NCBI GenBank assembly: GCA_963833095.1
Contig: CAWHWQ010000005.1
Span: 160,001 to 224,000 of the forward strand
DNA length: 64,000 bases
Source: Vulcanimicrobiota bacterium
GTDB lineage: Bacteria; Vulcanimicrobiota; Vulcanimicrobiia; Vulcanimicrobiales; Vulcanimicrobiaceae
Reading direction: 5' to 3'
The notes below the pieces were generated by a model that was not told the origin of the DNA, did not search any database, and was given only the letters and a program-made list of their open reading frames with translations. Below, in pieces: positions 6,701 through 49,901 of this stretch (within the stretch, counting starts at the first letter, position 1; each line of letters begins with the position of its first letter). Position numbers and translations under genes: made by a program.

Positions 6701-6799
6701 GGATAGGTTCCGACGCTTGGGCCAGGCTTGGAACCCGCGCAGGCCGGCCCGCGTGCGGGGCCGTAGACTCTGACTATGGCTGGAGAGGAGACCACCGTT

Positions 6800-7063
6800 A
6801 TGGATTCATCCAAACCCCAAACGCGCAAAGAGGCGCTCCGTACGCTAATCGTGCTGCCCGCAATGGCGGGCGCGATTGCGCTAGGCGCATCCTCGGCCGA
6901 CGCCGCGGCAAATAACCAGGCGCAGTTCAAATATCAAAACAAGCCGGGCACAAACGGCGAGAAATGCTCGGGTTGCAGTTTATTCAAGGCGCCCCACTCC
7001 TGTAGTGTGGTGACCGGAACGATCAGCCCGAACGGCTGGTGCATCGCCTGGGCCAAGAAGTAG
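6800..7063 (+). CDS. High-potential iron-sulfur protein (HiPIP, Iro-like), copy 1
   Basis: GAGGAG RBS at 6785-6790; signal peptide; CSGC-x8-C...ISPNGWC four-Cys HiPIP pattern. Confidence 0.85.
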   Translation: MDSSKPQTRKEALRTLIVLPAMAGAIALGASSADAAANNQAQFKYQNKPGTNGEKCSGCSLFKAPHSCSVVTGTISPNGWCIAWAKK

Positions 7064-7064
7064 C

Positions 7065-7325
7065 ATGGATACATCCAAATCGCAAACGCGCAAAGAGGCG
7101 CTGCGCACGCTAATCGTCCTCCCCGCGCTCGCGGGTGCAATCGCCCTCGGCACCGGCACGGCCGACGCCTCCGATAACAAGAAGCAATTCCACTATCAAG
7201 ACAAGCCCGGACCCAGCGGCAGGAAGTGCGCGGGCTGCCGCTTCTTTCGAGCGCCGCATGGATGCAGCATCGTCAACGGCACGATTAGTCCTAACGGTTG
7301 GTGCATCGCCTGGGCCAAGAGATAG
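7065..7325 (+). CDS. High-potential iron-sulfur protein (HiPIP), copy 2
   Basis: Paralogue of 6800..7063; YQDKP, CAGC-x8-C...ISPNGWC. Confidence 0.85.
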   Translation: MDTSKSQTRKEALRTLIVLPALAGAIALGTGTADASDNKKQFHYQDKPGPSGRKCAGCRFFRAPHGCSIVNGTISPNGWCIAWAKR

Positions 7326-8365
7326 CGCTCGTCTCGATCGCGACGGCGGTTCCACCGTACGCGCTCGAACAAAACGACGTTGCCGCTCGCGTCCACGCGC
7401 AATTCTCACGATCGCAAATCGTGCAACGCCTGATGCCCGTCTTCAACACGACCGGCATCAGGCGTCGTTATTCATGCGTACCGATTGACTGGTACTACGA
7501 CGCGCAGAGCTGGCCGCAACGCAACAGCGTGTATCTCGAAAGTGCGCAAGCACTGCTCGAAGGTGCTGCGCGGGATGCGCTGGAGCGCGCAAATGTACGC
7601 GCGGCCGACGTCGGCGCCGTGGTCGTCGTCTCGACCACCGGCATCGCCACGCCCAGTCTTGACGCGCGGTTGATCGAACCGCTCGGTCTCTCCCGCACGG
7701 TCAAACGCTTACCCATCTTCGGTCTGGGCTGCGTGGGCGGCGCCGTCGGTCTCGCGCGCGCGGCGGTGATGGCGCAAGCCGTGGCCCCCGCGCCCGTGCT
7801 ATTGCTGGTGGTTGAATTGTGCGCGCTTTGGTTTCGCCGCGACGATACCACCAAGAGCAACATCGTCGCGACCGCGCTTTTCGGTGATGGCGCTGCAGCA
7901 GCAGTTTTACGTGCCGGCGCCGATGGTCCACGCGTTCGAGCGTCAGGAGAATACACGTTTCCCGACACGCTCCGGGTGATGGGATGGGACGTGACCGGCG
8001 ATGGGTTGAGCGCCGTCTTTTCGCGCGACATTCCGCAGCTGGTGCAAAATCAACTCCAACCGGTTGTCGACGCCTACTTAGCGGAGTCGCAACTCACGCG
8101 CGCCGATATCGACGTATTCTTGAGCCACCCGGGAGGCACCAAAGTGCTCGACGCGCTGGAGTCGGCATTCGGCATCGAGCCCGGGTCCCTGCTTGACTCG
8201 CGCGCAGTGCTCACCGAGTACGGCAATATGTCGGCGGTGACGTTACTCTTTGTGCTCGAGCGCGCTCTGCGCGAAGGAGCCCTCACCCAATCGGCCTGGC
8301 GCCGGGCACTTCTCTCCGCGATGGGTCCGGGCTTTACTGCCGCGTTCGTTACCCTCGAACGATGA
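7298..8365 (+). CDS. Type III polyketide synthase (SrsA/BpsA-like alkylresorcinol/alkylpyrone synthase)
   Basis: Cys-His-Asn triad motifs GLGCVGG, SHPGG, YGNMS; LFGDGAAA; MGPGF. Confidence 0.92.
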   Translation: MVHRLGQEIALVSIATAVPPYALEQNDVAARVHAQFSRSQIVQRLMPVFNTTGIRRRYSCVPIDWYYDAQSWPQRNSVYLESAQALLEGAARDALERANVRAADVGAVVVVSTTGIATPSLDARLIEPLGLSRTVKRLPIFGLGCVGGAVGLARAAVMAQAVAPAPVLLLVVELCALWFRRDDTTKSNIVATALFGDGAAAAVLRAGADGPRVRASGEYTFPDTLRVMGWDVTGDGLSAVFSRDIPQLVQNQLQPVVDAYLAESQLTRADIDVFLSHPGGTKVLDALESAFGIEPGSLLDSRAVLTEYGNMSAVTLLFVLERALREGALTQSAWRRALLSAMGPGFTAAFVTLER

Positions 8366-8856
8366 CGCCGCTGCGCTGGATCGTCGCGATCGTGGCGCTG
8401 CTCCGCGTCGCGGAGTTATTCTACGCCGGGAGGAACACGCGCCGCTTGCTCGCGCGCGGTGGCATTGAAGTCGCACCCGAACAGTACCCGTGGTTCGTGG
8501 CGTTGCACGCCGCTTGGCTGCTATCGTTGCTCGTCTTCATCCCGGCGGATACGCCTGTCAACTGGTACCTGCTCGGCGTGTTCGCGCTCGCGCAAGTCGC
8601 GCGCGTCTGGATAATCGCGACCCTGGGCAATTTTTGGACGACGCGCATCATCACGCTCCCCGGGGCTCCGCTCGTACGCCGCGGCCCATACCGGCTTCTG
8701 CGTCATCCTAACTACGCGATCGTCTGTATCGAAATCGCGTCGCTGCCGCTCGCATTTGGCGCATGGCCGGTAGCGTTGTTCTTCACCCTTGCGAACGCAG
8801 GGCTCATAGCTTGGCGAATCCGCATCGAGGACGCGGCTCTTGATGCACGCCGCTAG
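8362..8856 (+). CDS. Isoprenylcysteine carboxyl methyltransferase family (SrsB/BpsB-like)
   Basis: Membrane protein with GPYRLLRHPNY and RIRIED; 4-nt overlap with PKS stop. Confidence 0.88.
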   Translation: MTPLRWIVAIVALLRVAELFYAGRNTRRLLARGGIEVAPEQYPWFVALHAAWLLSLLVFIPADTPVNWYLLGVFALAQVARVWIIATLGNFWTTRIITLPGAPLVRRGPYRLLRHPNYAIVCIEIASLPLAFGAWPVALFFTLANAGLIAWRIRIEDAALDARR

Positions 8857-10741: not shown

Positions 10742-10814
10742 TTCCTCACCGTTATATCCCACCGAGTCCGCAAAAAACAAGGTTCCCGTTTAGGTGCGCG
10801 ACGACAAACGGGGC

Positions 10815-12002
<1,188 letters not shown>

Positions 12003-12006
12003 TGAG

Positions 12007-14107
12007 TTAATCTCCTTGGCCCTTGGGGCTTGCAGTTGCAACGAGATCTGCGAATTTGCCGTTCGATTCGGCGAGCTTTTTCAAGAGCGGAGCCGGCTCC
12101 CAGCCAAACGCTACGACCTTGTCGTAAACGTTCTTTACGCCGATCTCATCGGCGTACCACATCGGGCCGCCGCGATGCGGCGGGAAGCCGTAGCCATAAA
12201 CGTAGACGATGTCGATGTCGCCTGGGCGAATCGCAACGCCCTCTTCGAGCAGAAACGCGCCGCGATTGACCAGCGCGTAGATCAGGCGATCGCGAATCTC
12301 GTCGTCGGTCACTTCGCGCGGCGCGATGCCGGCCTTCTTGGCTTCTTCTGCGAAGAGCGCTTCGACGTCGGGATCCGGAATCGGCTCGCGGCCTTTGCCG
12401 ACGGCCTTGTCGTACTTGAAGTAACCCGCCCCGGTCTTCTGTCCGAGGCGATTGAGTCTCGACCAAACGATCGACGACGTTGCTGCGGCCCTTGGCCAGA
12501 TCGGCCTTCGATTGCTGGATGTGCCACGCGACGTCGATGCCCGAGAGATCGCTCATCGCGAACGGTCCCATCGGGAAGCCGAACTTCTTGGCGAACTTGT
12601 CGATGCGCGCCGGCGCGACGCCCTCTTCGGCGAGCGCGACCGCTCGCGAGCGTAGTCGAACACCATGCGGTTGCCGATGAAGCCGAACGCGTTGGCCGAG
12701 AGCACGGCGGTCTTGCGCAGCGCTTTGCCGAGTTTGAACGCGGTCGCCAGCGTTTGCGGCGACGTGTCCTTGCCGCGCACGATCTCGAGCAGCGGCATGA
12801 TGTTGGCCGGCACGAAGAAGTGCAGGCCGACGAACTTGTCGGGGCGCTTGGTCACCGCGGCCATTTCGTCGATGTCGAGCGTCGAGGTGTTGGAGGCGAG
12901 GATCGCTTCGGGCTTTACGATCGCGTCGAGTTTGGCGAAGACTTCTTTCTTCACGTCCATGTTCTCAAACACGGCTTCGACGACGACGTCGGCGTCGGCC
13001 AGTTCGTTCCAGTCGTCGGTGAACTGATCGACTGGCCGCGCTTCCAGGCTTCTTCTTGCGTCATGCGGCCCTTCTGCACTTGGTACATGAACATGCCCAT
13101 CACGGTCTGCCGCGCTTTGTCGACGGCTGCGTCGTTGGAGTCGACGACGTGCACCGGGATGCCGGCTTGCGCGAACGTGATCGCGATGCCGGTGCCCATC
13201 GTGCCCGCGCCGATGACGCCGGCCTTCTTGATCTCGAGCGGCTCCGCAGCCGGAAGGCCCGGGATCTTCGCGAGTTCGCGTTCGGCGAAGAACACGTGAC
13301 GCAGCGCTGCCGACGGCGGCCGAGCGCACGAGCTGTTCGAACAGCCGGGCTTCGCGCGCGATGCCGAACGGGAAGGTCAATTCGACCGCGGCTTCGACCG
13401 CGTCGATGAGCTTGTGCGCGGCGAATCCGCCGTTGTCTTCGGGCGGCACCATCTTGTGCGCCTGCGACACGACGAACGGCGCGGCTTTGGCGACGATGCC
13501 TTTGCCGAGGCACGGCTTGCGTCCGAGATGCGGCGCTTGCCGCCTGTCGCGCGAGGTTGATCGCGGCATCGAGCGGATCGCTCTCGACGACTTCGTCGAG
13601 GATGCCCAGTTCCTTGGCCTCGTCCATCTTGACGTTGCGCCCTTGAGCATGAACTCGAGCGCGGCTTGCGCGCCGATCAGGCGCGGCAAGACGTTGCGTT
13701 CCGCCGGCACCCGGCAGCAAGCCGAGCTTGATCTCGGGCAGGCCGACTTTCGCTTCGGCCGGCGCGACGCGATAGTCGCACGCGAGCGCGAGTTCGAGGC
13801 CGCCGCCGAGCGCGTTGCCTTCGATCGCGGCGACGTAGATTTTCTCGCTCTTCTCGATCGCGGCGATCACGTCGCGAATCGTCTTGGTTTCCGGCGTCGG
13901 CTCGGTGGCGAAGTCGTTGACGTCGGCGCCGCCCGAGAAGTGCCCGTTGGCGCCGGTGAACACGACTGCCGTGATACTGGTATCGGCCGCCGCGGCCTCG
14001 ACGATCGGCACGATCTCCGAGAAGGCGAACGAAAGCGCGTTGACCGGCGGATTGTCGAGCGTGAAACGCGCACGCCGTCGTGATCTTGCGTGCGTAATGG
14101 GCGCCAT
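12007..14107 (-). CDS. Bifunctional enoyl-CoA hydratase/3-hydroxyacyl-CoA dehydrogenase, frameshifted
   Basis: [59 protein letters not shown] across several frames. Confidence 0.88.
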
Positions 14108-14109
14108 GA

Positions 14110-15929
14110 TTACGCTAGCACCGCCGACTTACGATCGAGCTCGAATGCATCTTCGGGCAACGGTCATCACGTCGGCCGAGCCTTCCATGATCTGCTTCTT
14201 GTACTACGCGCCTTGCGACAGCACGTGCGACATGTAGAATTTCGCGGTCGCGAGCTTGGCTTGGTAGAACGGATCCTGATCGCCCGCGGCGATCTTCTCG
14301 GCCGCGATCTGCGCGGCGCGCGCCATCTGCCAGCCGCCGGCGACGACGCCCCACAGCTTGAGGTACGGCACCGAACACGCGAAGGCTTTGTGCAGATCGC
14401 CCATCGCGTTCATGCCGATCCACTGCGAGACTTCCGCCAGCGCGCGAGGCCCTTGAGCAGCGATTCGCCGACGGCTTTCACGTCGGCGTTCTCGTGGGCC
14501 GCGGCTTCTTTGGCGAACTTCTCCATCTTCTTGACCACGGTGGTCGCGGTCGCGCCCATGTCGCGGATCAGCTTGCGTCCGACGAGGTCGAGCGCCTGGA
14601 TGCCGGTCGTGCCTTCGTAGATCGTGGTGATGCGCACGTCGCGGTACTGCTGCGCGATGCCGGTCTCTTCGACGTAGCCCATGCCGCCGAAGACCTGCAG
14701 CGCGTTCGAGCACAGGTCGACGCGGTCTCGGTGCACCAGCCCTTGACGATCGGGATCATCAGCTCGACGAAGGCCTTGTGCTCCTTGCGCACCTTCTCGT
14801 CGGGATGCTTGTTGCGCAAAATCGAGCGAGGCGGCGGTGACGTAGGCGAGCGCGCGCATCGCTTCGATGTTGGCCTTCTGCCACATCAGCATGCGGCGCA
14901 CGTCGGGATGCTCGATGATGCGCACCGGCGTCTTATCGCGCGTGCGGCGTCGGGCAACTGGACGCGCTCCTTGGCGTACTCGAGCGAGTGCTGGTACGCG
15001 CGGTCCGCGACCGCATAGCCTTGCACGCCGACCGAGAAACGCGCCGCGTTCATCATGATGAACATGTATTCGAGGCCGCGATTGGCTTCGCCGACCAGAT
15101 AGCCGATCGCGCCTTTGCCTTTTTCGCCGAAGTTCATCGTGCACGTCGGGTTGCCGTTGATGCCGAGCTTGTGCTCGATGCCGGCGCAGACGATGTCGTT
15201 GCGCTCGCCCAGCGAGCCGTCGGCGTTGACCAGGACCTTCGGAACGATGAAGAGCGAGATGCCCTTGGTGCCTTCCGGCGCGTCGGGCAGACGCGCGAGG
15301 ACGAGGTGAATGATGTTCTCGGCCATGTCGTGCTCGCCGAACGTGATGAAGATCTTCTGTCCGGTGAGCAGGTAGTGGTCGCCCTCGGGCACGGCCTTGG
15401 TGCGAACCTGCGCGAGATCCGAACCGGCTTGCGGCTCGGTGAGACACATCGTGCCCGTCCACTTGCCGGAAACGAGATTCGGAATGTACGTCTGCTTCTG
15501 CTCTTGCGAGCCGCAGAGTTCGATCGCTTCGATCGCGCCTTGGTTGAGCAGCGGACCGTTGGCAAAGCCGATGTTCGCCGCGTTCCACATCTCGAGCGTC
15601 GGCCCGAGCAGGAGCGAGGGCAATCCTTGGCCGCCGTATTCGGCGGGAACCGGAAGACCGATCCAGCCGGCGTCGGCGAATTTTTTATAGGCTTCTTTGA
15701 AGCCTTTGGGCGTCGTGACCTCGCCGTCTTTCCACGTGCAGCCTTCTTTGTCGGCGACGCGATTGAGCGGATCGAGCACGCCGGTGGCAAACGCCGCGGC
15801 CTCTTCGAGAATCGAATCGAGCACGTCCGTCGTGTCCTCGAATCCGGGAAGTTTGGCGACTTCTTCGACGCCTGCGAGTTCGCGCAGGACGAACTGCATG
15901 TCGCGGAGGGGGGCGCGGTACGTGCTCAT
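14110..15929 (-). CDS. Acyl-CoA dehydrogenase (DmdC/FadE5-like), frameshifted
   Basis: YRAPLRDMQF, GTMCLTEPQAGSD, GQKIFIT, MNAAR, QVFGGMGY, IYEGTTGIQALDL. Confidence 0.88.
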
Positions 15930-15952
15930 CGTGTCGTTTTCTCCCGCGTCGA

Positions 15953-16341
15953 TTAAGCGGCGCTGACGTTGTAGAGTTCGCTGCGCAGTCGAGCGACCGA
16001 GCCTGCGAGCATGTCAAGATACGGAAGCATGGCGGATTTGATGCGTTCGAGTCGCGCGCGGCCTTCTCGGTGATGCGGTAGAAGCGGCGCGAGCGTTTGG
16101 TGGGATGCTCCCACTCGCCGACGACGAAACCGCGCTCCTCTAAACGACGCAACAGCGGATAGATGGTGTTCGTATTCACCGCCAGAAGGCCGGCGCAGAG
16201 ATTCTCGATGCGGGCCATGAGGCCGGAGCCGTGGTCGGGCTCGTCGGCAAGCAAATGCAGGACCAAGACCGGGAAAACGGTCTTCGACTTGATCGGGCCC
16301 CGAAGGACCTCTTCGGCGGGGGCGACCTGCTTGGGACTCAT
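15953..16341 (-). CDS. PadR-family transcriptional regulator (one frameshift near the 3' end)
   Basis: TIYPLLRRLEERG, RRFYRITEK; continues in another frame to a stop at 15953. Confidence 0.85.
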
Positions 16342-16465
16342 ATTATATAGAATATTATTAAATCTAATAAGAGTTCCACCCTGCCAGACATTGGTCGACT
16401 CCCAATGGCGCGAGCGGAGCCGCGCGACTTTTAGCCGGGCAAAGCTTTAGCTTTGCACGATAAAG

Positions 16466-18462
16466 TCATTGGCCGGGGCAGGACTGCCCGACGAGCAAGA
16501 TGCCCTTGAACGCGGCCCTGTCGCTGGTCGGGAAGGGTGCAGCGCCAAAAGGCTTCACGCAGTTCGAGGCAAGCAAGTACGCCATGATGGAGGCGTAAGT
16601 CGTCGGTGACAGCGAGCCGGGCGCGGTCAGCGGCATCTGCTTCGTAACGAACGTTCGCAACGCCGAGATGGTCAGATGCGATTGTCCGAATGCCGATCCG
16701 GCGAGCGCCGGTGCCGACACGCCTTGCAACTGCGCTCCGTGACAGGCCGCGCACGACTGCGTGTACGCGATCTTTCCCGCGGTCACTTGCGCTTGCGTAT
16801 AAGGCGCAGTTCCAGTTTGCATGACGCCGGAGGCAACGACGCTCGCGGCCGCGCTCTGTCCGGTTGTTCCATTGTGCACCGGGTTGGTTGCGCCGACACT
16901 GAACGCTATCACATAGTCGCCGTTCGTAGCCGGAAGATTCGGCGTCTTTTGATTTCCGGGCTCGCCGACCGTCACGACCAAATATTCTTGTCCGTCGATG
17001 CTGTATGACGAAAAAGGTGCGACGATTGCGCTGTGCGTCGCATACGTCCAGAGTTGTTTTCCGGTCTTGGTATCCAGCGCATAGAGATTGCCGGCGAGAT
17101 CGCTCGAGAACGTAAGGCCGGTCGAGGTCACCAGCGCGCCGCCCTGCGCTGGATAGGGCACCGGCGTTCGCCACGCAAGTTTTCCGGTTGAAACGTCCAC
17201 CGCGTTGACGATGCCCGTGCCGTCTTGACGTTTCGTCGGCGGGCCGCCGCGATAATTCTGTCCTTGTTGCCACGGCGGTTGTACCGCGTAACTCCGAAAA
17301 ACGCCGCATTCTTGTGTAACCGGGATGATGAAGTAATTCGTCGCGGCATCGTATGCGCCGCCGTTCCACTCCGCGCCGCCGCCATGATTCGGACAGGCTT
17401 TGAGTCCCGCCGGCGTCGGCGTCATGTCGAGCCCGTATTGATTGGCGACCGGCAAACGGTGCACGACCGCGCCGCTCGCGCGATCGAGAACGACGAAGTC
17501 ACCCGCTTTATCGGCGATCGCCAGGAGATGCCGGCTTTGCCCGTTCACCGTCCCGTCAAAGAGCACCGGCGGCATGGCGGGATCCGCATCGTGCGTATCG
17601 GGGTTGAGGATCTGGTAGTACCACTTCATCTTTGGCTGCGCGCCGGAGATATCGAGCGCGACCACCGAGTCACTGTAGAGATTCTTGCCCTTGCGCGTCG
17701 CGTCGGAGAAGTCCGGTGAGGCATTGCCCGGCGCGATGTAGAGTGTCTTGGTCGTTGGGTCAACCGACAATCCGCCCCAGAGGGCGGCGCCACCGTGTTT
17801 CCAGGAATCGCCGGGCCACGTCTCGTGGCCGGGTTCACCCTGCGCGGGAATCGTGTTCCATTGCCACAGCTTCGAACCGTCGGCAGCGTTGAAGGCTTGG
17901 ATGCTGCCGTTCCCGCCGAAATCGCCACCCGCGACACCAACCAACAACATCGTCTTATACGGATACACGGCCATCGAATACCAGTTGTTGGCCTGATTCG
18001 AACAGCCGGAAACGTTCCACACTTCTTTGCCCGTTGCTGCGTCGAGCGCGCGCACGCGGCAATCTTGCGTCGCGATAAAGACTTTATCAGCGGCGAGGCC
18101 GGCACCACGGTTCGTGGCAAAATCGAGAATCGCCGCTGGCGAGTAGGGCGAATCCCACTTCAGCGCCCCGGTTTTTGCGTCGAGCGCAAGCACGTGGTTG
18201 TGCGGAGTCGTGAGGTACATCACGCCGCTGGCAATGATTGGCGCGGCCTCTTGTTCGCCGACGTCGGCGAGCTGCGTGCTCCAGGCCGGCGCAAGCTGCG
18301 CGACATTTTGCGCCGTGATGGTCGACGTCACAGAACGATTGAAGCCAAGGTTGTATCCGGCGAGCGGCCAATCTCCCGCGGCCGCGGCGTTTGTCCCCGG
18401 TTGAACGATTGTGAGCATCCCGCCAGCATGGTGATCGCAAGAGCGACGGTGACGACCTTCAT
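16466..18462 (-). CDS. PQQ-dependent dehydrogenase with C-terminal cytochrome c (quinohaemoprotein), lipoprotein
   Basis: PQQ W-motifs (ALDAKTGALKW), TWPGDSWKHGGAALW, CAACH; upstream ATG 18462 with GAGG RBS gives MKVVTVALAITMLAGC lipobox via one frameshift. Confidence 0.85.
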
Positions 18463-18477: not shown

Positions 18478-19072
18478 TCATGTGGTGGGATCCGGCAACT
18501 CCTTGAATGATTGTTTGACTCGATATTCACTATACGGATAGCGTGAGCGCAATTCCGCCCACTGCGTGAGCATCTCGTCGCTGTCGGGATCACGCCGGTA
18601 GCGAGTGACGCCGAGATAGTATTGCGCCTCGGGAGCCGCGTAACTCGTCGAGAAGCGGCGCAACACGTCGAGATAACAGCGCTCCGCTTCGTCCCACCGC
18701 TTCAAGCGCAAAAAGGCCAATCCAACGCGCACTGCAAACGCGCGACGAACTCGAACGGCGGCAAGAAGCCGTCCCAGCGATACATCTCGTAGCCGTCGGT
18801 ATTCATAATTCTGATATCCGGCGTCCAGATATGATGAATGGTGTGGAGAAACTGATTGTTCTTCGGGTCTGAGTTGTCGATCTGCACGGGGATCGCGTGC
18901 GCGGTGATCGCTTCTCTGACCAGGTCTTGTGGATACGTCACGGCATCCAGCGCTTGGCATCCCCCTCAACCGGGGTTAAAGATTCCAGGAGAACGAATTT
19001 TCGCTCGTCCTTTGCGCGTTCGAGCATGGCGGTATAATCATGCTGCCAAAAGTCCGCTTCTTGCGTTTCCAT
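18478..19072 (-). CDS. Thioredoxin-like/TPR protein with UxxC motif (candidate selenoprotein), two frameshifts
   Basis: METQEADFWQHDY...KFVLL/IFNPG-TGA-GGCQALDAVTYP...WTP...GFLPP/TPR-like APEAQYYLG. Confidence 0.7.
18930..18949 (-). promoter_or_regulatory. Candidate bacterial SECIS hairpin
   Basis: UGGAUGC-CGUGAC-GUAUCCA, stem starts 16 nt after the in-frame UGA (18966-18968). Confidence 0.6.
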
Positions 19073-19134
19073 ATCGTAAGCCTATCACATACCGGCTATG
19101 CTCAGGCAACAGCGGTCGGGCAGACTCTGCCCTC

Positions 19135-19713
19135 ATGGGAGACTGCTACAGCCTTGCCCGGGCACTCGTTGTGCCCAATCGTCCGAACGGCGCCGGCGCG
19201 ATTTCTGCAACCCTGGAACGCTTCGGCAACGGCGCTCTTCGTTTTGCCCTCGATCGTCAGACACGTGTCGCGCCACTCCATCGCGGCGAGAAATATCGCG
19301 AGGCCTCGCCGGCGCTCGCACGCTTGGGCATCGACGTCGATGCGTGGCCCGCGCCGCCGGCCGGCCTCTTCGTGGTGGAGGAGCGCACCGTGTATCTGCG
19401 TTCGCGCAGCGCCATGACCGTCGCGCACGAATTCGGACATGCCCTCGACTGCGCACTCGGCAACGGCGTCTATCGTTCCGGCATCGATCCGCACATTCGC
19501 CGGCTCTTCATCGACGCGCGCAGTTTCGTAACGCCATACGCGGCCACCGGCATCGATGAATATTTTGCTGAGGCGCTCCGCGCGTTCGTGGAAGCGAACG
19601 ATCCCGCATCGCACTGGCCGCGCGCTACGAAGGCGCGCCTACGAAACATCGATCTGGGACTGTACGAATATGTTGAGCGCCTCTTCCGCGTTGATTTTAG
19701 CGCGGCGGCGTAG
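19135..19713 (+). CDS. HExxH zinc metallopeptidase, anthrax-lethal-factor (ATLF)-like; start uncertain
   Basis: AHEFGHALD ... FVTPYAAT..DEYFAE. Confidence 0.75.
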   Translation: MGDCYSLARALVVPNRPNGAGAISATLERFGNGALRFALDRQTRVAPLHRGEKYREASPALARLGIDVDAWPAPPAGLFVVEERTVYLRSRSAMTVAHEFGHALDCALGNGVYRSGIDPHIRRLFIDARSFVTPYAATGIDEYFAEALRAFVEANDPASHWPRATKARLRNIDLGLYEYVERLFRVDFSAAA

Positions 19714-27910: not shown

Positions 27911-29108
27911 CGAAATCCGGGCGGTCTCGCCGTGGTATCTCCAGCCGCTGCGCTGGATGGCCTACATTTGCGTCGCGTCCTATTACCGCGTCACGTGTCG
28001 GATTCGCTCATGGGGCGCCTTGCCGTACCACCGCGGGCCGACTCTGATCGTTGCAAACCATCAGCACGAACTCGAATCGCCGGTGATCGTTGCCGACCTT
28101 GGGCTACGATCGCTTTCTTGGCGCGACCCGATTTTCACCGTCTCGTCGCGGAGAATGTGGGAGCCGGGGTTCTTTGCCGAGCGTATCCCCTGGCTCGCGA
28201 TCGCGCGCGAGACGAATTTCGGTTGGCTCTTCGGCTCGATCGGCATGCAGCCGATCGAAAACGAGTTGCAATCACGCCCGTACGCGAGCATCGCCTACAC
28301 ATTGATCGGCTTGCATGGCGATCTACCGATTGAGAGCGTCTTGCGCGACAAGGCTCTCGCGCAACTTCCGCCCGGCATCGGCAAGCTCAGCGATTTGCTT
28401 ACCGCGCGCCACTTCGCGTTTGCGCGCTCCTACGTGCGCATCTCCGACCTTCTTGAACCGTATCGCGAAGGGGTAATGCGCGCAACGCGTGCGAGCATCG
28501 ACGCCGACATCGCGCATTTCGAGAATTTGCAGCGGGACGGCGCAACGATCTTTCTCACGCCCGAGGGCTTCTATAGCGGCGACGGCAAGATGCGCCCGCT
28601 GCGTGGCATTCTCGCGCGCCTCGTGCCGCTTGCGACAGTCTGGCTTGCGGCCATCAGCTACGATCCGTACGTCCGGCAACGGTTGACGATGCTCTATCGC
28701 GTAACACCGGCGACCGGCGATCTTCCGCTGGATACTCAGCTCAAGGCCGCGCGTCCGGTGACGACCAGCGCCCTACTGTGCACGTGGATTGCACAACACG
28801 ACGGAAGTTTCACCGCGCGCGATGCCGCTGCCGGTGTCACGCAGGAAGTGCAGCTTTTGCCGGCTGCCGCGTTCACGGTGCCGGAGTTACGCTCAAATCC
28901 CGATGCCGCCGTCGGAGACGCGCTGCGCGGGATGGTTCGTCTGCGCACGCTCGAGCTTCGCGACAGCGCTTACACGCTCACCTCGGAGCGCACGCACCCG
29001 CAATTTGCGCGCACACAAGATATGATCGCGTATCAGGTAAACTTTCACGCCGAAACGTTGGACGGGTTAGCGACGGCGCAAGGCGGCGGCAACCAGACGG
29101 CCGGCTAG
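27900..29108 (+). CDS. PlsC-like (LPLAT) acyltransferase
   Basis: IVANHQHELE (HxxxxD/E) and FLTPEG motifs. Confidence 0.6.
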   Translation: MKGNEIRAVSPWYLQPLRWMAYICVASYYRVTCRIRSWGALPYHRGPTLIVANHQHELESPVIVADLGLRSLSWRDPIFTVSSRRMWEPGFFAERIPWLAIARETNFGWLFGSIGMQPIENELQSRPYASIAYTLIGLHGDLPIESVLRDKALAQLPPGIGKLSDLLTARHFAFARSYVRISDLLEPYREGVMRATRASIDADIAHFENLQRDGATIFLTPEGFYSGDGKMRPLRGILARLVPLATVWLAAISYDPYVRQRLTMLYRVTPATGDLPLDTQLKAARPVTTSALLCTWIAQHDGSFTARDAAAGVTQEVQLLPAAAFTVPELRSNPDAAVGDALRGMVRLRTLELRDSAYTLTSERTHPQFARTQDMIAYQVNFHAETLDGLATAQGGGNQTAG

Positions 29109-29672
29109 GTCTGCGCATTTCGGCGCTTCGCGCGAAAGCCACATGGCCTCGCCCCAGTTGCGCGGATTGAGAATCGCGCGGGCCGGATGCAGCCACGCAC
29201 TGGAAAGTTCGTTCTGCGGTGAGTCGAGGATCACGCGAACGACCGCAAGTGACTCGACGAGAATCCGTGCGCTCTCCATGTCGACCCCCGCGAAGCCGCG
29301 TTGCGCCCACACGGCGCGCTGCGCGCCGTTGATCAGGGTCGCGCTGGTGAGCAATGGTGCGTCCACCGGCACGCACCCGAGTTCTCGTGCCGCCCGGCGC
29401 AAACGCAGCGTCCAGTCCGGATCGCACTCGACCGTTACTCCGTCAGTCGTGCTGAGAGACGACGGGATCAGCACCGTTCCCGTCGGGAGATCCGTGCGTA
29501 AGCCGCCGGCAAGTCCGCAACTGATCGCAAGATGCCCAAGTGCCGACGCCCGGAGTCGCGCAAGGCCGATACCGGACTCGACAACCCGCGCTTGCGGCGC
29601 GTGGCGTCGCACCGCGCGCGCCTCGAGACTGGTCGCGGCGACAATCGCCGGCTCTTCAGGCGGCGTAGCCAT
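29067..29672 (-). CDS. hpnG: Hopanoid-associated nucleoside phosphorylase (HpnG-like)
   Basis: SCGLAGGL, GVDMES, VVRVILD; last gene of the hpn operon. Confidence 0.75.
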   Translation of the reverse strand: MATPPEEPAIVAATSLEARAVRRHAPQARVVESGIGLARLRASALGHLAISCGLAGGLRTDLPTGTVLIPSSLSTTDGVTVECDPDWTLRLRRAARELGCVPVDAPLLTSATLINGAQRAVWAQRGFAGVDMESARILVESLAVVRVILDSPQNELSSAWLHPARAILNPRNWGEAMWLSREAPKCADLAGRLVAAALRRR

Positions 29673-30612
29673 GATCTCGATACCACACGATGGCGTTCAC
29701 CAGCGCATCGATGACGGGTCGCATGCGAACGCCGAGCGCCTCCTCCGTCTTCACTGAGTCAGCCGAGTCGACGAACATTTGCTTTTGCGACATCCGCACG
29801 CCTTCCAACGGAACGAAGGGCGTCGCACCGCTCACGCGGCAACGCGCTTCGTCAAACCAGGCCGCGGCATACATCAGCGGGACCGGCGCTCGCATGCGAG
29901 GCGCCGCGCGGCCGGTCAGCTCGGCAAGCAAATCCCACAGCGCATCGAAGCTGAAGTTCTCCCCGCCGATCACGAATCGTTCACCGATGGCACCGCGCTC
30001 GAGCGCGGCGACGTGCGCTTGGGCCACTTGCTCGACGTCGACGAGATTCATGCCGCCGCTCGCCGGCGGACGCGCAATCATCTTGCCGCGCATGAAGTCG
30101 ACGATCATCGCGCCGGTCGGCGTCGGTTTCCAGTCGCCCGTGCCCACCGGCGCAGTAGGCAGCACGGCGACGGTTGGGAGCCGGCTCGCAAAGGCACCGC
30201 GTTCTTGCACGATCTTCGATGCGTGGTAATCGAGTTCGTGGGAAGTAAACGCGTGCGTTTCTCCGTCGAGCGTCGCCGAGCTCGAGGTCAGCACCGCGCG
30301 TTCGACCCCGGCGAGATGCGCCGCTGCGAAGAGTCCCTCGGTGCCGAGCACGTTGGTCCGGCGCATCGCCGTACGGTCCCGCGGTCCGAACGAGTACTGC
30401 GCGGCGCAATGCACCAGATAGCGACAGCCGTCAAGCGCATGCGCCAGTGCGCCGGGCCGGTTCAGATCGCCGCTGACGATTTCAGCGCCTTCCACCGGCG
30501 CCATCGGCCCGCGGGCCAAAGCCCGGACGCGGTAGCCGGCATCAAGAAGCGCACGTAGAACGTGCGCTCCAACGAAACCTGACCCGCCTGTTAGGAAGAC
30601 TAAATCCCGCAC
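29656..30612 (-). CDS. hpnA: Hopanoid-associated NAD-dependent epimerase/dehydratase
   Basis: TGGSGFVG, YHASK, GDWKPTPTG; cluster context. Confidence 0.82.
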   Translation of the reverse strand: MRDLVFLTGGSGFVGAHVLRALLDAGYRVRALARGPMAPVEGAEIVSGDLNRPGALAHALDGCRYLVHCAAQYSFGPRDRTAMRRTNVLGTEGLFAAAHLAGVERAVLTSSSATLDGETHAFTSHELDYHASKIVQERGAFASRLPTVAVLPTAPVGTGDWKPTPTGAMIVDFMRGKMIARPPASGGMNLVDVEQVAQAHVAALERGAIGERFVIGGENFSFDALWDLLAELTGRAAPRMRAPVPLMYAAAWFDEARCRVSGATPFVPLEGVRMSQKQMFVDSADSVKTEEALGVRMRPVIDALVNAIVWYRDHGYAA

Positions 30613-30627
30613 GATGGCGGAACCATC

Positions 30628-31635
30628 TTAACGGGTTCCAATTGCCGCGCGAATCGATTCCTTGATCGAACCGGTGGTCCGAATCACTGCCGTAGGCTCG
30701 TATCCGCAGTGCGCCATGCAGTTGTTGCAGCTGGGGTGCTTACCGCGACCGTACTTTTCCCAATCGGTCTCTTCGATCAATTCCTTGTACGTCTTGGCGT
30801 AAGGCGCGTCGCTCATCAGATAGCATGGACGCTGCCAGCCGAACACCGTGTAGCAGGGGATCCCCCACGGCGTGCACTCGAAATCGACCTTGCCCTCCAG
30901 GAAATCCAGATAGAGCGGACTATGATTGAGGCGCCACTCTTTGCGCTTGTCGCCGGCGAATGCCTCACGAAAAATATCGCGCGTGCGCTCGACGCCAAGG
31001 AAGTGTTCCTGATCGGGCGCCTTCTCGTACGCGTAACCGGGCGAGATTTGCATCATGTCGACTTTCAAATCGTTATTGAGATAGTCGAGCACGGCGCGGA
31101 TCGACTTAGCGTCGTCGCGATCGAAGAACGTGGTGTTGGTAATAACCTTGAAGCCCTTCGCTTTTGCAACTTTGATCGCGGAAATCGCTTTTTCGAAAAC
31201 GCCCTCGCGACAGACCGACTCATCGTGCTCCGCCTTGAGCCCGTCGAGGTGGATCATCCACGAAAAGTAGGGCGATGGTTTGAACTGATCGATCTTCTTT
31301 TCGAGCAGCAACGCATTGGTGCAGAGAAAGACGAATTTCTTGCGCTTGAGCAGTTCTTCGACGATCTGCGGCATTTGATCGTGGATCAATGGCTCGCCGC
31401 CGGCGATCGAGACGCACGGGGCGCCGCATTCATCGACCGCCGCCATACATTCCTCGACGCTTAGACGCTTGCGTAGCACGTCGGTCGGGTGCGAAATCTT
31501 CCCGCAGCCGGCGCAAGCTAGGTTGCACTGCAGCAGGGGCTCGAGCTCCAGGACGAGAGGATACTTCTTCTCGCCACGCAGCTTTTTACCGAAGATGTAC
31601 TTTCCGACTGTTAGTTTCTCTTGTAACGAACTCAA
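30628..31635 (-). CDS. hpnH: Adenosyl-hopene transferase, radical SAM
   Basis: YPLVLELEPL, CNLACAGC, CMAHCGYE. Confidence 0.93.
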   Translation of the reverse strand: MSSLQEKLTVGKYIFGKKLRGEKKYPLVLELEPLLQCNLACAGCGKISHPTDVLRKRLSVEECMAAVDECGAPCVSIAGGEPLIHDQMPQIVEELLKRKKFVFLCTNALLLEKKIDQFKPSPYFSWMIHLDGLKAEHDESVCREGVFEKAISAIKVAKAKGFKVITNTTFFDRDDAKSIRAVLDYLNNDLKVDMMQISPGYAYEKAPDQEHFLGVERTRDIFREAFAGDKRKEWRLNHSPLYLDFLEGKVDFECTPWGIPCYTVFGWQRPCYLMSDAPYAKTYKELIEETDWEKYGRGKHPSCNNCMAHCGYEPTAVIRTTGSIKESIRAAIGTR

Positions 31636-33472
31636 TCGCGTCTCGCTTCTCGGTCGCCAGCGCCATCAAAGGGAAGACGTGGCGATACAGATGATAGTTC
31701 AGGTAGAAATCGCGGGGAAACCCGGTCCCCGTGAAATGCGGTTCTTCCCAGGTTCCATCGTGGGTTTGAGTCTCCTTGATATAGGCAAGACCCCGCTGCG
31801 CCGGCGCATGGTCGCCTAGCCCTGCGATCTGCAGCGCGTTGACCGCCCAGGCAGTTTGCGAGGCCGTGCTCGCACCCACGCCGGCAAACGATTCGTCGAC
31901 GTACGAATGACAGCTTTCGCCCCAGCCGCCGTCCGCGTTTTGCTTCGAGATCAGCCAGGCAGCGGCACGTTCGATCATATCGCTTCCGGTGCGCAACGCC
32001 CCGAGCGCCGAGATCGCGCACCACGTCCCATAGATGAAGTTCACGCCCCAGCGGCCCCACCAGGATCCGTCGGCGCGCTGCGTCGTGCGCAGATATTTTA
32101 CGGCGCTTGCGACATCACCGTCGCGCGTGTCGCGTCCGAGGAACGCCAGCATCTCGCCGACGTGCGCCGTCACATCTTCAGTCGGCGGATCGATCAGCGC
32201 GCCGAAATCGGCAAACGGCATGCGATAGAGCAACTCACGTGTATTGTCGCGATCGAACGCGGCCCAGGCTCCGTTGCGCGAGCGCATCGCAAGCGTCCAC
32301 GCCGCGCCGCTCTCCACCGCTTCGCTCACCATATCGGGTTCGCCCGCATCGATGAGGGCGAGCACGACGATCGCAGTGTCGTCGATGTCGGGATACGCAT
32401 CGTTATCAAACTCGAAAGCCCAACCGTTGCCGCCGCGAAAATCGCTGCGCATGCGCCAATCGCCCGGAGCGTCCGCGGCGATCTGCTCGCGCAACAGCCA
32501 GCGCACCGCCCGTTGCATCGCCGGATGATCGTGTTTGAGCCCAGCGAGCGAAAGCGCGCGCAGCGCCCACGCGGTGTCCCAGACCGGCGACATGCATGCC
32601 TGCACGCGCCAGCCTTCGCGGTCGTTGATGATGAAGCGGTGAAAACCGCCAAGACCCTTGCGTACGATCGGATGATCGAGCCCGTACCCCATGAGGTCGA
32701 GTGCGATCAACGAATAGACCCACGGGGGTTGAATCCCACCCCAACTGCCATCGGCTTCTTGGCGCTGCACGATCCACTCGGTCACCTTGCGCATCGCCGC
32801 CGCGCGCAACCGATTTTTCGAAAAACGATCGTAGAACTTTAGTGCAGCGTCGAGCCACCACATCCAACCTGATCCCGGCACGTGGTGCATCGCCCGCTGC
32901 GTGCCGGGGTTGATCACTTCGTCAACCTCGACACCGAGTGGCCGGACAGGACGCTTGGAGACGACGATCGTCAGCGGCGCTACCGTTCCACGCGCCCAGC
33001 AGGCGAAATCGTACACGTTGAACGGCATCCACAGCGGAAAATAGATCATCTCCGGCGGCAGTGACGGGATGCCATCCCACGGATACACACCAAAGAGCGC
33101 GAGCCAAATCTTGGTGAACACGCGCGCTTGCGCGAGACCGCCCATGCGCCGGATCACGCGCAACGCGCGTTGCATCGGTTCGCGTCCGGCGTCGACTCCG
33201 AGGACTTTGAGCGCAACGTAGGCTTCGATCGTGGTGCTTACGTCGGCTGGGCCATCGTAGTAGAGTGCCCATGAGCCATCCTCGCGTTGGCAGCCCAACA
33301 TGTGCGCGATCGCCCCGTCGCGGATCGGCTCTACGTCAATGCCAAGGAAACGGTAGAGCAAGATTTGTTCCGCCGTCATCGTGACGTTGGTCTCGAGTTC
33401 GCCGCTCCACCAGCCCTCCGGCGCCTGTTGCGCAAGCAGCCAGTCGATGCCGCGTTCGAGCGCGTCAGCCAC
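31586..33472 (-). CDS. shc: Squalene-hopene cyclase
   Basis: YPDIDDTA (DxDD), QW repeats, SPVWDT, GTGFP. Confidence 0.96.
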   Translation of the reverse strand: MADALERGIDWLLAQQAPEGWWSGELETNVTMTAEQILLYRFLGIDVEPIRDGAIAHMLGCQREDGSWALYYDGPADVSTTIEAYVALKVLGVDAGREPMQRALRVIRRMGGLAQARVFTKIWLALFGVYPWDGIPSLPPEMIYFPLWMPFNVYDFACWARGTVAPLTIVVSKRPVRPLGVEVDEVINPGTQRAMHHVPGSGWMWWLDAALKFYDRFSKNRLRAAAMRKVTEWIVQRQEADGSWGGIQPPWVYSLIALDLMGYGLDHPIVRKGLGGFHRFIINDREGWRVQACMSPVWDTAWALRALSLAGLKHDHPAMQRAVRWLLREQIAADAPGDWRMRSDFRGGNGWAFEFDNDAYPDIDDTAIVVLALIDAGEPDMVSEAVESGAAWTLAMRSRNGAWAAFDRDNTRELLYRMPFADFGALIDPPTEDVTAHVGEMLAFLGRDTRDGDVASAVKYLRTTQRADGSWWGRWGVNFIYGTWCAISALGALRTGSDMIERAAAWLISKQNADGGWGESCHSYVDESFAGVGASTASQTAWAVNALQIAGLGDHAPAQRGLAYIKETQTHDGTWEEPHFTGTGFPRDFYLNYHLYRHVFPLMALATEKRDAIEFVTRETNSRKVHLR

Positions 33473-34754
33473 GGGGAACCTCCATAATTACCTCTGCGGC
33501 CGCGATTCCGCTACGCACCGCCGACTCCATCGTGTCGGGCCATCCGGTTTGCGTCCATGACCCTGCAATAGCCACGCGCGGATGCGCCGTGCGCTGCAGC
33601 GTTCGTTGCGCGCCGGGACGGGGCAAGTACGTTGCTTCGGGATTGCGCGTCGCCGCTGCGTGCTCGACGCGCCCGCCGCGTAATGCCGGAACGAATGCGC
33701 ACAATTCTTGCCAGGCAAGCCGTTCTAATTCGGTAGTCGGCACGGTGAGCACGGCGCCGGCGGCGCTGATGCTACAGCACACGTATCCTTCGTCTTTTTC
33801 GAAAATCCACTGAAGCGGCGAATCGAGCACCGCGGCAAAATCGAAGCCCAGCGCACCGCGATCGTGCCAAAGGTGAACGTCAACAATCGGATACGGATCG
33901 TAGGTGTCCAAGGCGCGAACACCAAAGCGCTCGGGCGAACCGAGCAGCCTTGCGGTCGTGCGTGGCGAGACCGCCAGTATCACTGCGTCAAAGTGCACGC
34001 GCAGCTCTTGTGGCAGCAGCAACTCGATCCCGTCGTCGCCGGCTTCCATCGCCAGGACCCCGGTCGAGAGATGCACCGCCGAAATGCGCGCGGCAGCCGC
34101 GGCAGCGACGTGCGCCAGCGGCACGGTTGAAAAGCCAAATCGCGCCGCAGACGCATTGCTAAGGAACGCCGTAGCGATCACGAAGAGCGCATCGGTCGCG
34201 CTCACGCGATCGAACGACGCGTTGAGAGCCGGAATAAAGAATGGATCCCAAAAGGCGCGCCGCGTCGCATCGTTCTGACCGTTACGCGCGAGCCACTGGT
34301 CGAAGGTGAGGTCGGCAGCGGGATGGCGCGCGACCGCCGCGCTTGCAAGAGCGCGCGCCACGCGAACGCGCCCTCCGGCGTCGAGGTGCGCGTAGCCCGC
34401 GAACGAGGCCAGCAGATGAAAGGGCGCGGGCAGTGACGCGGCCCGAAGCCGGCTACTGGTGCCGTCGCGCGCGAGCACCAGCGCATCGAAGCGTGGTTGT
34501 TCGCGCAGCGCATAGCCCATGCCGACGCGTTCGACGAACGCAATGAAGCGATCGCAACAGTGCAGGTACACGTGCTGGCCGTTGTCGATTTCCCGCCCAC
34601 CGACTTCAAATGACGTCGCGCGTCCTCCGAGCAGTCGCGTGCGCTCGAAGACTTCCACCTCATAGCCGCGCTCTTCGAGCTCGAGCGCAGCCGAAAGTCC
34701 GGCAAGGCCCGCACCGACGATCGCTACACGCTTTGGGCTCACAGCCCCAGCCAC
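33465..34754 (-). CDS. hpnE: Hydroxysqualene dehydroxylase
   Basis: GAGLAG, IDNGQH, WPDTMESAVRSG. Confidence 0.88.
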   Translation of the reverse strand: MAGAVSPKRVAIVGAGLAGLSAALELEERGYEVEVFERTRLLGGRATSFEVGGREIDNGQHVYLHCCDRFIAFVERVGMGYALREQPRFDALVLARDGTSSRLRAASLPAPFHLLASFAGYAHLDAGGRVRVARALASAAVARHPAADLTFDQWLARNGQNDATRRAFWDPFFIPALNASFDRVSATDALFVIATAFLSNASAARFGFSTVPLAHVAAAAAARISAVHLSTGVLAMEAGDDGIELLLPQELRVHFDAVILAVSPRTTARLLGSPERFGVRALDTYDPYPIVDVHLWHDRGALGFDFAAVLDSPLQWIFEKDEGYVCCSISAAGAVLTVPTTELERLAWQELCAFVPALRGGRVEHAAATRNPEATYLPRPGAQRTLQRTAHPRVAIAGSWTQTGWPDTMESAVRSGIAAAEVIMEVPRG

Positions 34755-35626
34755 GCCCGAACCATCGCCCCGATCTTCTCGGTGCCCGAGAGGCCGGCGC
34801 GGTCATGCAAGGGAAGCGCGGGATCGCGCTCGATCTTCTCGAGAATCCGCTCGTAGATTCCGGCCATCGTTCGCACGCATGCCGCCGGCCGCCGGTCAAT
34901 GTAGCGCAAGACCTCATAGCCACGCGCGAAATACTCCCGCGCGCGCTGCGCCTCGAAAGCGATCAGCGCATCCCATCCTTCTCGCCCTTCGAGGCTCGCG
35001 CTACGCGCGAGCTCCTCAGGATGACAGAGTGCGCCTTCCGCGATTCCGAACCGGCGCAAATCTTCTTGCGGCAAATAAATGCGCCCAAGCCCCATATCCT
35101 CGCGCACGTCGCGCAAGATGTTGGTCAGTTGCAGAGCGATGCCAAGGTCGTCGGCGCGTTTGAGCGCTTCTTCGTCCACAAAGCCAAAAATCCGAACGCA
35201 CATGCGCCCGACAACGGATGCAACCAGGTTGCAGTAGACCTGCAGCTCATCCCAAGTTTGGTAGCGAACTTTGCTTGCGTCCATCTCGACGCCGTCGATG
35301 AGCATCTGCAGCTCACGCTGCGGAATGGCGAAACGATTGACGGCCACGGCAAGCACCTGCATAACGGCGTCGTCGTCTGCGTACTCTCCGCGCGCGCACT
35401 TTGCGATACGCTCGCGGTGACGCAGCAGTCGACCCGGCAAGTCCGGCGCGTGCGCGACGGCATCCGCTTCGTCGTCGACTTGGCGCGCGAAATCGTAGAG
35501 CGCGTAGATCGCGTTACGCTGCTCCCGTGGTAGTGAGATGAACCCCCAGTAGAAGTTTTTTGCCTCGCGCCGCGCCATATCATGGCAGTATCGCTCGGCA
35601 TCGGCGAGGCTAAGTGCTACCGACAT
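34739..35626 (-). CDS. hpnD: Presqualene diphosphate synthase
   Basis: NFYWGF, ARQVDDEAD, QLTNILRDVRED, GRIYLP. Confidence 0.85.
   Translation of the reverse strand: MSVALSLADAERYCHDMARREAKNFYWGFISLPREQRNAIYALYDFARQVDDEADAVAHAPDLPGRLLRHRERIAKCARGEYADDDAVMQVLAVAVNRFAIPQRELQMLIDGVEMDASKVRYQTWDELQVYCNLVASVVGRMCVRIFGFVDEEALKRADDLGIALQLTNILRDVREDMGLGRIYLPQEDLRRFGIAEGALCHPEELARSASLEGREGWDALIAFEAQRAREYFARGYEVLRYIDRRPAACVRTMAGIYERILEKIERDPALPLHDRAGLSGTEKIGAMVRAWLGL
34985..35026 (-). repeat. REP-like palindromic element inside hpnD
   Basis: TGTCATCCTGAGGAG-CTCGCGC-GTA-GCGCGAG-CCTCGAAGGG, read as CHPEELARSASLEG. Confidence 0.72.
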
Positions 35627-36461
35627 ATCTCCCGCTTCTGCCGGCGCGTAGCGAACTGCCCAACGCGCGCATCAGGATCGCGATCCGGTCGCGCCCGCTC
35701 ACCGTTGGTCGTCGCACCTCGGTGTGGTAGTCAATCTCTTCGATGGCCTTGCAAATAGCAAGGCCGCCCATGCGATAGAGCCGGAGCTGCAAGGCGAGCG
35801 CGAACGGCACCATCGTTTCGAGCGCTCGACCTGAATCGAGCAAACGTCGCGCCCGCTCCACCAGTGCGCGAACCGCGCCGGACGTTCCCGATGCGGCAAC
35901 GTCCTCGCCGAGCAGATAACGCCGGCCGATGAGGGCGTCGCGTTTGACGTCTTGGGCGTGATTGGCCAGTTGCAGCCCGATGCACACGTCATCCGAGAGG
36001 GCCTGAGCGGCGGGACCGTTGACGCCGAAGATCGCCAGGACCATACGCCCGACCGGAGCGGCCGAAAGCCGGCAATAGGCCTCGAGTTGCGGCCAGGTTT
36101 GATACGCCGTGGCCTGCTGGTCGAGCCGGTTGGCCTCGATCAAATCGAAGAACGGTTCGGACGAAATCGCGGCGCGCGCGACCGTTTCACGTAACGCGAA
36201 GAGCACCGGATGCACCGGCGTCACGCCGGCAAACATCGCGCGCGCCTCAGTCTGCCAGCGGTCGAGTCGCTCTAGCGCCTCATCGGGCGAAGCGCTTTCG
36301 TCGCCTAAATCATCGGTCGTTCGGCAGAAAGCGTAGATGCGCGCCAGGTCTCGCCGCACGGCGGCACGCACCAGGCCCGAAGCGACGATAAAGTTCTCGT
36401 AATGGCGCCGCGTGAGCTCCCGGCAATATGCATCGGCTGCCGCGAGCGCTACGTCATTCAT
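35610..36461 (-). CDS. hpnC: Hydroxysqualene synthase
   Basis: HYENF, DDLGDE, SAAPVGR, LQLANHAQD. Confidence 0.87.
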   Translation of the reverse strand: MNDVALAAADAYCRELTRRHYENFIVASGLVRAAVRRDLARIYAFCRTTDDLGDESASPDEALERLDRWQTEARAMFAGVTPVHPVLFALRETVARAAISSEPFFDLIEANRLDQQATAYQTWPQLEAYCRLSAAPVGRMVLAIFGVNGPAAQALSDDVCIGLQLANHAQDVKRDALIGRRYLLGEDVAASGTSGAVRALVERARRLLDSGRALETMVPFALALQLRLYRMGGLAICKAIEEIDYHTEVRRPTVSGRDRIAILMRALGSSLRAGRSGRYVGST

Positions 36462-37513
36462 TGTTCGACCAGCATGTCGGTCAACTTCAACTCGTCGATC
36501 GAGCGCAGGCCTAGCGCGAACATCGCGACGCGCATAACTTCGATAATCTCGCGCGCGAGGTCATGCACTTCATCGAAGCCTTGCGCGGCCGCCCGCAAAA
36601 ATGGACCCGCGATACCGATCAAGTCCGCTCCGAGCGCGATCGCCTTGGTCGCATCGAGTCCCTCGCGAATGCCGCCGCTGGCAATAATGAGGCCTTCCGG
36701 CACCGCGGCGCGCGCCTCCCGAACGCATTCCGCCGTCGGAATTCCCCAAGCCGCGAACTGCGCGGCTACGCGAACGCGCCACGATTCATGCGTGCGATGA
36801 CGTTCGACTTCACTCCACGAGGTGCCGCCGGCCCCGGCGACATCGACGCCGGCGACGCCGCACTCGAAGAGCGCGCGAACGACGTCGGCGCTTAGGCCCC
36901 ACCCGACCTCCTTGACCAGTACCGGAACATCTAACCCGTCGCACAAGTCTGCGATACGTTCCATCAGCCCGCGAAAGTCGGTATCACCCTCGGCCTGCAG
37001 TGCTTCCTGAAGGGGATTCAAATGGAGCATCAGCCCGTCGGCGTTCACGAGCTTGATCAAGTGGCGTAATTGCGGGGCGCCGTATCCCTTGTTCAACTGG
37101 ACCGCGCCGAGGTTCGCAAAAAGCAACACGTCGGGCGCGACCGAGCGGACATCGAAGCTTTCGATGGTGCTTGGATCCTCGAGCAAGACGCGCCCCGAAC
37201 CTAGACCCATCGCGAAGCCGAATTCTTGGGCAATACGCGCCAACGTCCGATTGACGCCGGTCGCTTCGGGCGTTCCGCCGGTCATACAGGAGATCAAGAG
37301 CGGTGCGCGCAGCGTACGACCGAAATGCGTGACACTCAGATCAACGTCGGCAAGGGCGATTTCCGGCAGTGCGCAGTGCTGGAATCGGTAACGCTCGAAA
37401 CCCGGGCTAACGCCTTTTCCGCGAACGTCCTGCTCGAGATTGATCCGTAAGTGCTCAGCCTTTCTCGACGTGCTGCCGTCCCCCGATCGGCCGCGCTCAG
37501 TTCCCTGCTGCAA
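36458..37513 (-). CDS. fni: Type 2 isopentenyl-diphosphate isomerase
   Basis: RKAEHL, MTGG, HLNPLQE, KEVGWG, GAGGTSW. Confidence 0.93.
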   Translation of the reverse strand: MQQGTERGRSGDGSTSRKAEHLRINLEQDVRGKGVSPGFERYRFQHCALPEIALADVDLSVTHFGRTLRAPLLISCMTGGTPEATGVNRTLARIAQEFGFAMGLGSGRVLLEDPSTIESFDVRSVAPDVLLFANLGAVQLNKGYGAPQLRHLIKLVNADGLMLHLNPLQEALQAEGDTDFRGLMERIADLCDGLDVPVLVKEVGWGLSADVVRALFECGVAGVDVAGAGGTSWSEVERHRTHESWRVRVAAQFAAWGIPTAECVREARAAVPEGLIIASGGIREGLDATKAIALGADLIGIAGPFLRAAAQGFDEVHDLAREIIEVMRVAMFALGLRSIDELKLTDMLVEQ

Positions 37514-49892: not shown

Positions 49893-49901
49893 CGCATCGC
49901 T

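Follow-up and report, generated by a model that had tools for sequence, protein, structure and literature searches.

The minus strand of the window, by which we mean the whole 64,000-nucleotide stretch of DNA analysed here, carries between positions 19072 and 18478 a gene whose coding sequence is spread over three frames. The best overall explanation, to which we give a probability of about 85%, is that it encodes a single cytoplasmic protein of ~198 amino acids, with a thioredoxin domain and a TPR tail, that contains selenocysteine (Sec) and would act as a client-selective thiol-disulfide oxidoreductase. Sequence conservation makes it very probable that the UGA codon at 18968-18966 is recoded as Sec, and the original prediction of a hidden selenoprotein gains support from the conservation of this TGA, from homologues with Cys and from frozen synonymous sites in the hairpin that follows. 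The new part is modest and consists of the spread of the family in soil Eremiobacterota/Vulcanimicrobiota and of the frozen SECIS.

Organization of the gene and its two frameshifts

Read on the minus strand, the gene starts at ATG 19072, has its true stop at TGA 18480-18478 and specifies a thioredoxin fold with a UGGC motif followed by a TPR tail. This agrees with the original prediction in the frame IFNPG-TGA-GGC-QALDAVTYP, which places TGA 18968-18966 at the first position of a CxxC motif, in the protein-like frame that continues upstream to ATG 19072, and in the TPR tail, to which the Pfam TPR_6 and TPR_16 matches of the last piece correspond. The gene had further been described as continuous through one indel; the loss at ~18983 was found, but the TPR tail comes into frame only through a second loss, at ~18723. 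The individual parts, with P0004 denoting a Cys homologue that was modelled, are as follows:

18984..19072, minus strand: 5' part, residues ~1-30, with the thioredoxin domain's first helix and its central beta-strand (identical to L001 at 25 of 29 residues; strand E25-31 in the P0004 model)
18983, minus strand: first frameshift, a one-base loss compared with relatives (the codon is Asp in 80 of 80 relatives)
18957..18968, minus strand: UGGC active-site motif, with predicted Sec codon TGA 18968-18966 (residue 36) and putative resolving Cys 18959-18957 (TGA in 80 of 80 loci; Cys in distant homologues)
18930..18949, minus strand: candidate bacterial SECIS with a 7-bp stem, 6-bp core 18948-18931 and 6-nt loop 18942-18937 (published rules applied by script; frozen synonymous sites)
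18724..18983, minus strand: rest of the thioredoxin domain (DsbD-gamma/SoxW-like), with WTP loop 18827-18819 (Pfam Thioredoxin_2, E 1.3e-5; 83 of 86 positions identical to L001)
18723, minus strand: second frameshift, a one-base loss (seen against seven of seven relatives)
18478..18723, minus strand: C-terminal TPR-like helical domain (YbgF/CpoB/BamD-like) and stop (Pfam TPR_6, TPR_16; 74 of 78 residues identical to L001)

Full-length L001 passes the Pfam cut-offs for PF13899 and PF13098, scoring 28.7 bits for the latter against a cut-off of 27, where the window piece alone reaches 25.9. In a first search against longer proteins the middle piece found no homologue as a query, and no plasmid copy of the gene was found.

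Sequence comparison indicates that both frameshifts in the window copy are most likely assembly (consensus) errors. The losses at ~18983 and ~18723 were both seen against seven of seven close relatives. A total of 54 indel events were seen against at least two relatives, 22 of which, lying within 5.6 kb of adjacent fad sequence, were seen against at least four; because these fad genes carry ~4 window-only indels per kb, two indels are what one would expect in 0.6 kb. In the window, the topA, hslU, dxs and def/fmt matches are likewise split over frames, while some long genes nearby are without any frameshift, and the indel errors are therefore patchy. The copy would instead be a recent pseudogene if both frameshifts were real, a reading favoured by the occurrence of two frameshifts within 0.6 kb, the first of them outside a homopolymer, and by the intact state of the adjoining 650-aa gene. 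We consider this highly unlikely in view of the indel rate in the adjacent fad genes, the equally fragmented topA, hslU, dxs and def/fmt matches, and the mostly synonymous substitutions that separate the window from L001 (55 synonymous and 11 non-synonymous codon differences). More generally, fad genes, topA, hslU, def/fmt and dxs are interrupted by many one-base indels within 10800-16400 and 46700-59400 of the window, and the assembly is indel-rich in patches.

An in-frame TGA is conserved among relatives

GTDB was scanned with a pattern lying ~60 codons downstream of the TGA column, which yielded 121 confirmed stretches, and the best 80 of these were analysed. TGA occupied the Sec column in all 80 loci, at identities of 50-94%, and 71 of them carried an Eremiobacterota/Vulcanimicrobiota label. 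The upstream frame was open in 79 of the 80 and the locus was colinear and open to its end in 75, the five non-colinear cases being contig ends or shifts. The G-G-C after UGA was kept in 80 of 80 loci, and purifying selection, estimated from pairwise counts, was similar before and after UGA (N/S 0.40 vs 0.47).

A search of a representative library gave 108 hits, of which 55 begin downstream of the motif, 46 extend to the N-terminus and 7 are long or unmatched. Among the 46 N-terminally complete hits, a CxxC was parsed in 32, W was found in 2 and the remaining 12 were other or unparsed; the nearest Cys homologue was P0004. Truncated forms beside Cys forms among homologues are what a selenoprotein family usually shows. 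The TGA column of homologues thus holds what had been expected of it, TGA in 80 of 80 loci and CxxC in 32 of 46 N-terminally complete hits, and because the in-frame TGA recurs in 80 of 80 relatives and Cys occurs in distant homologues, the TGA is genuine rather than a read error. Two distant database proteins, P0040 and P0070, have Trp at the Sec column, where the gene caller probably read TGA under another code. A tree built from 63 rows (44 protein hits and 19 of the 80 loci) placed all 19 TGA loci in one clade (support 100/93) beside P0004, with truncated and Cys forms mixed elsewhere.

Were the UGA a real stop, the locus would encode two products, a 35-aa peptide and, beginning at a GTG nine codons on, a TPR protein of ~150 aa, and the frozen block described below would be a translation-start signal. 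Database proteins have just this appearance: among 364 hits to full-length L001, the best 120 all measure 126-158 aa and lack a CxxC in their first 60 residues, and their starts lie most often at the GTG nine codons after UGA, an invariant codon. These short proteins are, however, predictions that assume table 11; G-G-C is retained between UGA and GTG in 80 of 80 loci, the Cys homologues are one chain, and the fold's central strand lies within the 35-aa piece. A Shine-Dalgarno-like 4-mer precedes the GTG in 0 of 80 loci, a weak argument given that the true start seems to be without one too. Termination at this UGA is accordingly an extremely unlikely reading, and we continue with recoding as Sec.

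A hairpin under constraint follows the UGA

The 7-bp hairpin originally predicted downstream, with loop CGUGAC starting 24 nt after UGA, was recovered with one G-U pair, and its loop carries GU at positions 2-3. The bSECIS rules given in the accessible text of PMC13188914 are a loop of 3-9 nt with a G among its first two nucleotides, 16-37 nt from UGA, a stem of 4-16 bp and an energy <= -7.5. Scored with our own script (not bSECISearch), the window hairpin agrees with each of these, having a 6-nt loop with G second, a distance of 24 nt, 7 bp and -7.6 kcal/mol. Its bSECIS-like geometry therefore held up, but as evidence geometry weighs little by itself, since the same script passes 135 of the 1406 TGA triplets in the window (9.6%; 57 of 1406 under stricter rules); the weight comes from conservation. 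Fold z-scores of +1.33 to -0.73 were not significant, with shuffles folding equally well, and -7.5 kcal/mol was reached in only 12 of 80 relatives when the contiguous-stem energy of bare stems was used.

Codons +7 to +11 are each represented by a single codon in all carriers (zero codon entropy), compared to 0 of 43 invariant columns among conserved controls (p=2e-5, in a statistic that ignores the relatedness of the loci). The frozen block uses GAT and TAT, though the rest of the gene favours GAC and TAC, and in eight distant loci it is 90-100% identical to the window, with later third positions at 43-57%. The six core pairs are intact in 80 of 80 loci, where the only changes are to G-U wobble; at each of the three variable stem positions a one-sided change leaves a G-U pair, and no two-sided compensatory change was found among 24 sequences. 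Upstream of the UGA, the Gly codon is nearly fixed (GGT in 70 of 71). No second copy of the hairpin block was found behind a UGA in the window or the loci. These comparisons demonstrate constraint on the hairpin at the level of sequence, and we infer the structure itself. Since TGA is kept in 80 of 80 relatives and synonymous sites within the hairpin are frozen, the observation stands above chance.

The gene belongs to a listed, predicted selenoprotein family

The window gene is a member of an already listed predicted selenoprotein family and not a new kind of system. This 'Thiol:disulfide interchange protein' family, with PF13098, a UxxC motif and WP_011366075.1 as representative, appears in Table 1 of PMC13188914 and in supplement 3 of PMC12013277, and in the accessible parts of these sources it is predicted, not experimentally verified. 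A 2006 survey, in its accessible text, gives three members, from the anaerobes Syntrophus aciditrophicus, Geobacter metallireducens and G. uraniumreducens (PMC1794560). Judging from supplement 3 of PMC12013277, the WP_011366075.1 family shares with the window gene a length of ~190 aa, a thioredoxin domain, a WTP loop, a TPR tail and a Sec placed after F-N-P-G. Full-length homology including the TPR tail was found indirectly, via P0022, which matches L001 at 36% (E 1e-31) and is colinear with WP_011366075.1 (107 of 152 residues identical by hand count). The window gene differs in having UGGC where the family has UIGC, in the separate, well-supported subclade formed by window-type TGA loci, and in its hosts, which are mostly Eremiobacterota/Vulcanimicrobiota soil genomes, whereas the members listed in the accessible text of the 2006 survey come from anaerobes.

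The NCBIfam models NF041383/NF041382 (VPGUxxT), NF045694 (TsoB) and NF041199 (Trx7/PDZ) describe proteins with a related thioredoxin domain and Sec near the active site, but differ in length, motif and partner domains, and against them the window pieces and 13 homologues gave weak hits of at most 57 bits, compared to cut-offs of 275-805. Leptospirillum TFP2, weighed as a possible tested member of the family, was rejected (12 kDa, WCGPC, no TPR). Literature searches turned up no report that links Eremiobacterota to selenocysteine, selenium or sel genes, and 0 matches for sel terms in the accessible supplements of the V. alpinum paper are not evidence of absence. The BSepDB input list includes at least a few genomes with related names, and some of these genes may already be recorded in its online data.

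Predicted fold and proposed mechanism

The model of P0004 (pLDDT 96) comprises a thioredoxin domain and a TPR domain at residues ~104-194, the span that the TPR matches cover (104-194), and its motif stands, as in thioredoxins, at the start of the helix that follows the central strand. The thioredoxin domain is closest to DsbD-gamma/DsbH/SoxW-like thioredoxins (2lst, 3f9u, 1vrs, 2ju5, 2kuc; Z 13-14, rmsd 1.8-3.5, 109-127 aligned), which are the best structural matches of the N-terminal domain but are without the TPR tail and Sec, and several of which are periplasmic. Because its sequence starts directly with the fold, the window protein is probably cytoplasmic.

Family knowledge and thioredoxin chemistry suggest how Sec would be inserted, how Sec36 and Cys39 may share the work and how the TPR domain may select. 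SelB and Sec-tRNA would bind the hairpin 24 nt downstream, so that the UGA is read as Sec at the first position of UxxC. The Sec36 selenolate could then attack a disulfide, or another oxidised thiol, in a client; Cys39 would resolve the adduct, giving a selenenylsulfide, which the thioredoxin-reductase system would re-reduce, while the TPR domain would pick the client or partner. By analogy, oxidoreductase chemistry is likely, and we lean towards the TPR domain being a client adaptor.

The Sec protein could also work mainly as a CnoX-like chaperedoxin, in which unfolding proteins are held by the TPR domain and their cysteines protected by mixed bonds to Sec. With CnoX/YbbN it has in common the order of thioredoxin then TPR, no signal peptide seen and a weak profile match (121 columns of E. 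coli CnoX, probability 84%, E 7e-6), and YbbN ranked 18 in the fold search. Yet homology across the thioredoxin and two TPR subdomains of CnoX (~284 aa) was not found, BLASTP being non-significant (E 1.9) and the profile match spanning 121 columns. The window protein is shorter (~195 vs 284 aa), with about half the TPR, it has a DsbD-gamma-like thioredoxin subtype and Sec, the whole-chain superposition is poor (TM 0.40, rmsd 11), DsbD-gamma/DsbH/SoxW-like folds are closer, and no groEL or chaperone gene was found among the recurring neighbours scanned. A mainly chaperone-like role is thus unlikely, and client-selective thiol-disulfide exchange is our preferred function.

Spread in soil Eremiobacterota/Vulcanimicrobiota

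These results take a predicted and little-studied family beyond a few anaerobes, into at least 71 Eremiobacterota/Vulcanimicrobiota loci. They also correct a systematic annotation miss, as the best 120 of 364 relatives lack the active site, and the named entries among them are TPR, TolA-binding or hypothetical proteins. In addition, the nearly invariant 20-nt block makes a clean natural bSECIS on which SelB recognition could be tested, and from the gene one would expect Sec machinery, and a requirement for selenium, in a soil lineage of which a representative has been cultured. A broader proposal is that soil Eremiobacterota (Vulcanimicrobiia; one cultured member, aerobic) broadly decode Sec and keep a Sec thioredoxin-TPR protein with an almost invariant SECIS, which could be a selenium-powered CnoX-like chaperedoxin against oxidative stress; we offer this tentatively and hold it to be doubtful overall. 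According to the accessible text of a review, selenoproteins are rarely retained in aerobic bacteria (PMC13188914), a statement against which Sec decoding across soil Eremiobacterota, if true, would run.

Selenium machinery and gene neighbourhood

No selA, selB or selD motif and no tRNA-Sec was found in the window or in the 1.37 Mb that comprise the window and its flanks. A Pfam scan of the 81 ORFs of the window found no sel gene, Rfam and tRNA searches of the window gave no hit, and neither did Rfam on 7 of the 80 loci. ARAGORN found no tRNA-Sec in any of the 80 loci, where an anticodon-arm pattern likewise found none, and SelA/SelB/SelD/Fdh motifs gave only chance matches and one EF-Tu. Because the gene is without a conserved operon, the commonest real neighbour family occurring in 18 of 81 sequences, sel genes missing from its vicinity say little. 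No conserved neighbourhood among the 81 sequences pointed to a client.

A special tRNA or a genome-wide reassignment could in principle recode the UGA as Cys (or Trp) with no involvement of selenium, which would accord with sel machinery not being seen in the window and flanks and with the W in P0040 and P0070. This is scarcely credible, however, as TAA, TAG and TGA interchange at the gene's own end (in 29, 27 and 22 of the 80 relatives) and TGA must therefore be a normal stop in the carrier genomes; moreover, the hairpin fits the bSECIS rules and the family is listed with Sec. Insertion of Sec at this codon is the reading we retain.

Several further features were observed in and around these loci. 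At 12844-12935 on the minus strand of L002, ARAGORN called a tRNA of 92 nt whose four-base anticodon is unassigned; Rfam gave no hit there. Six bases before the ATG of the window gene, at 19087-19079 on the minus strand, lies TG-n-TAGGCT, of which TAGGCT is kept in five of six relatives shown; this could be an extended -10 box that would give a leaderless mRNA. The divergent neighbour at ~19130-19713 on the plus strand, in the frame of ORF 18856..19713, has a HEXXH motif, no Pfam hit and syntenic matches in six of seven close relatives, and we take it to resemble a zinc peptidase. Directly downstream on the same strand, a gene at 16466-18418 (minus) encodes a PQQ-type beta-propeller dehydrogenase fused to cytochrome c, and a similar gene occurs in 9 of 81 sequences. 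Elsewhere in the window, 6767-8853 on the plus strand holds a HiPIP-like gene, a type III polyketide synthase and an ICMT-type methyltransferase, and a hopanoid cluster at ~29000-40300 contains a squalene-hopene cyclase, a radical SAM protein with DUF3463, two squalene/phytoene synthases and a glycosyltransferase.
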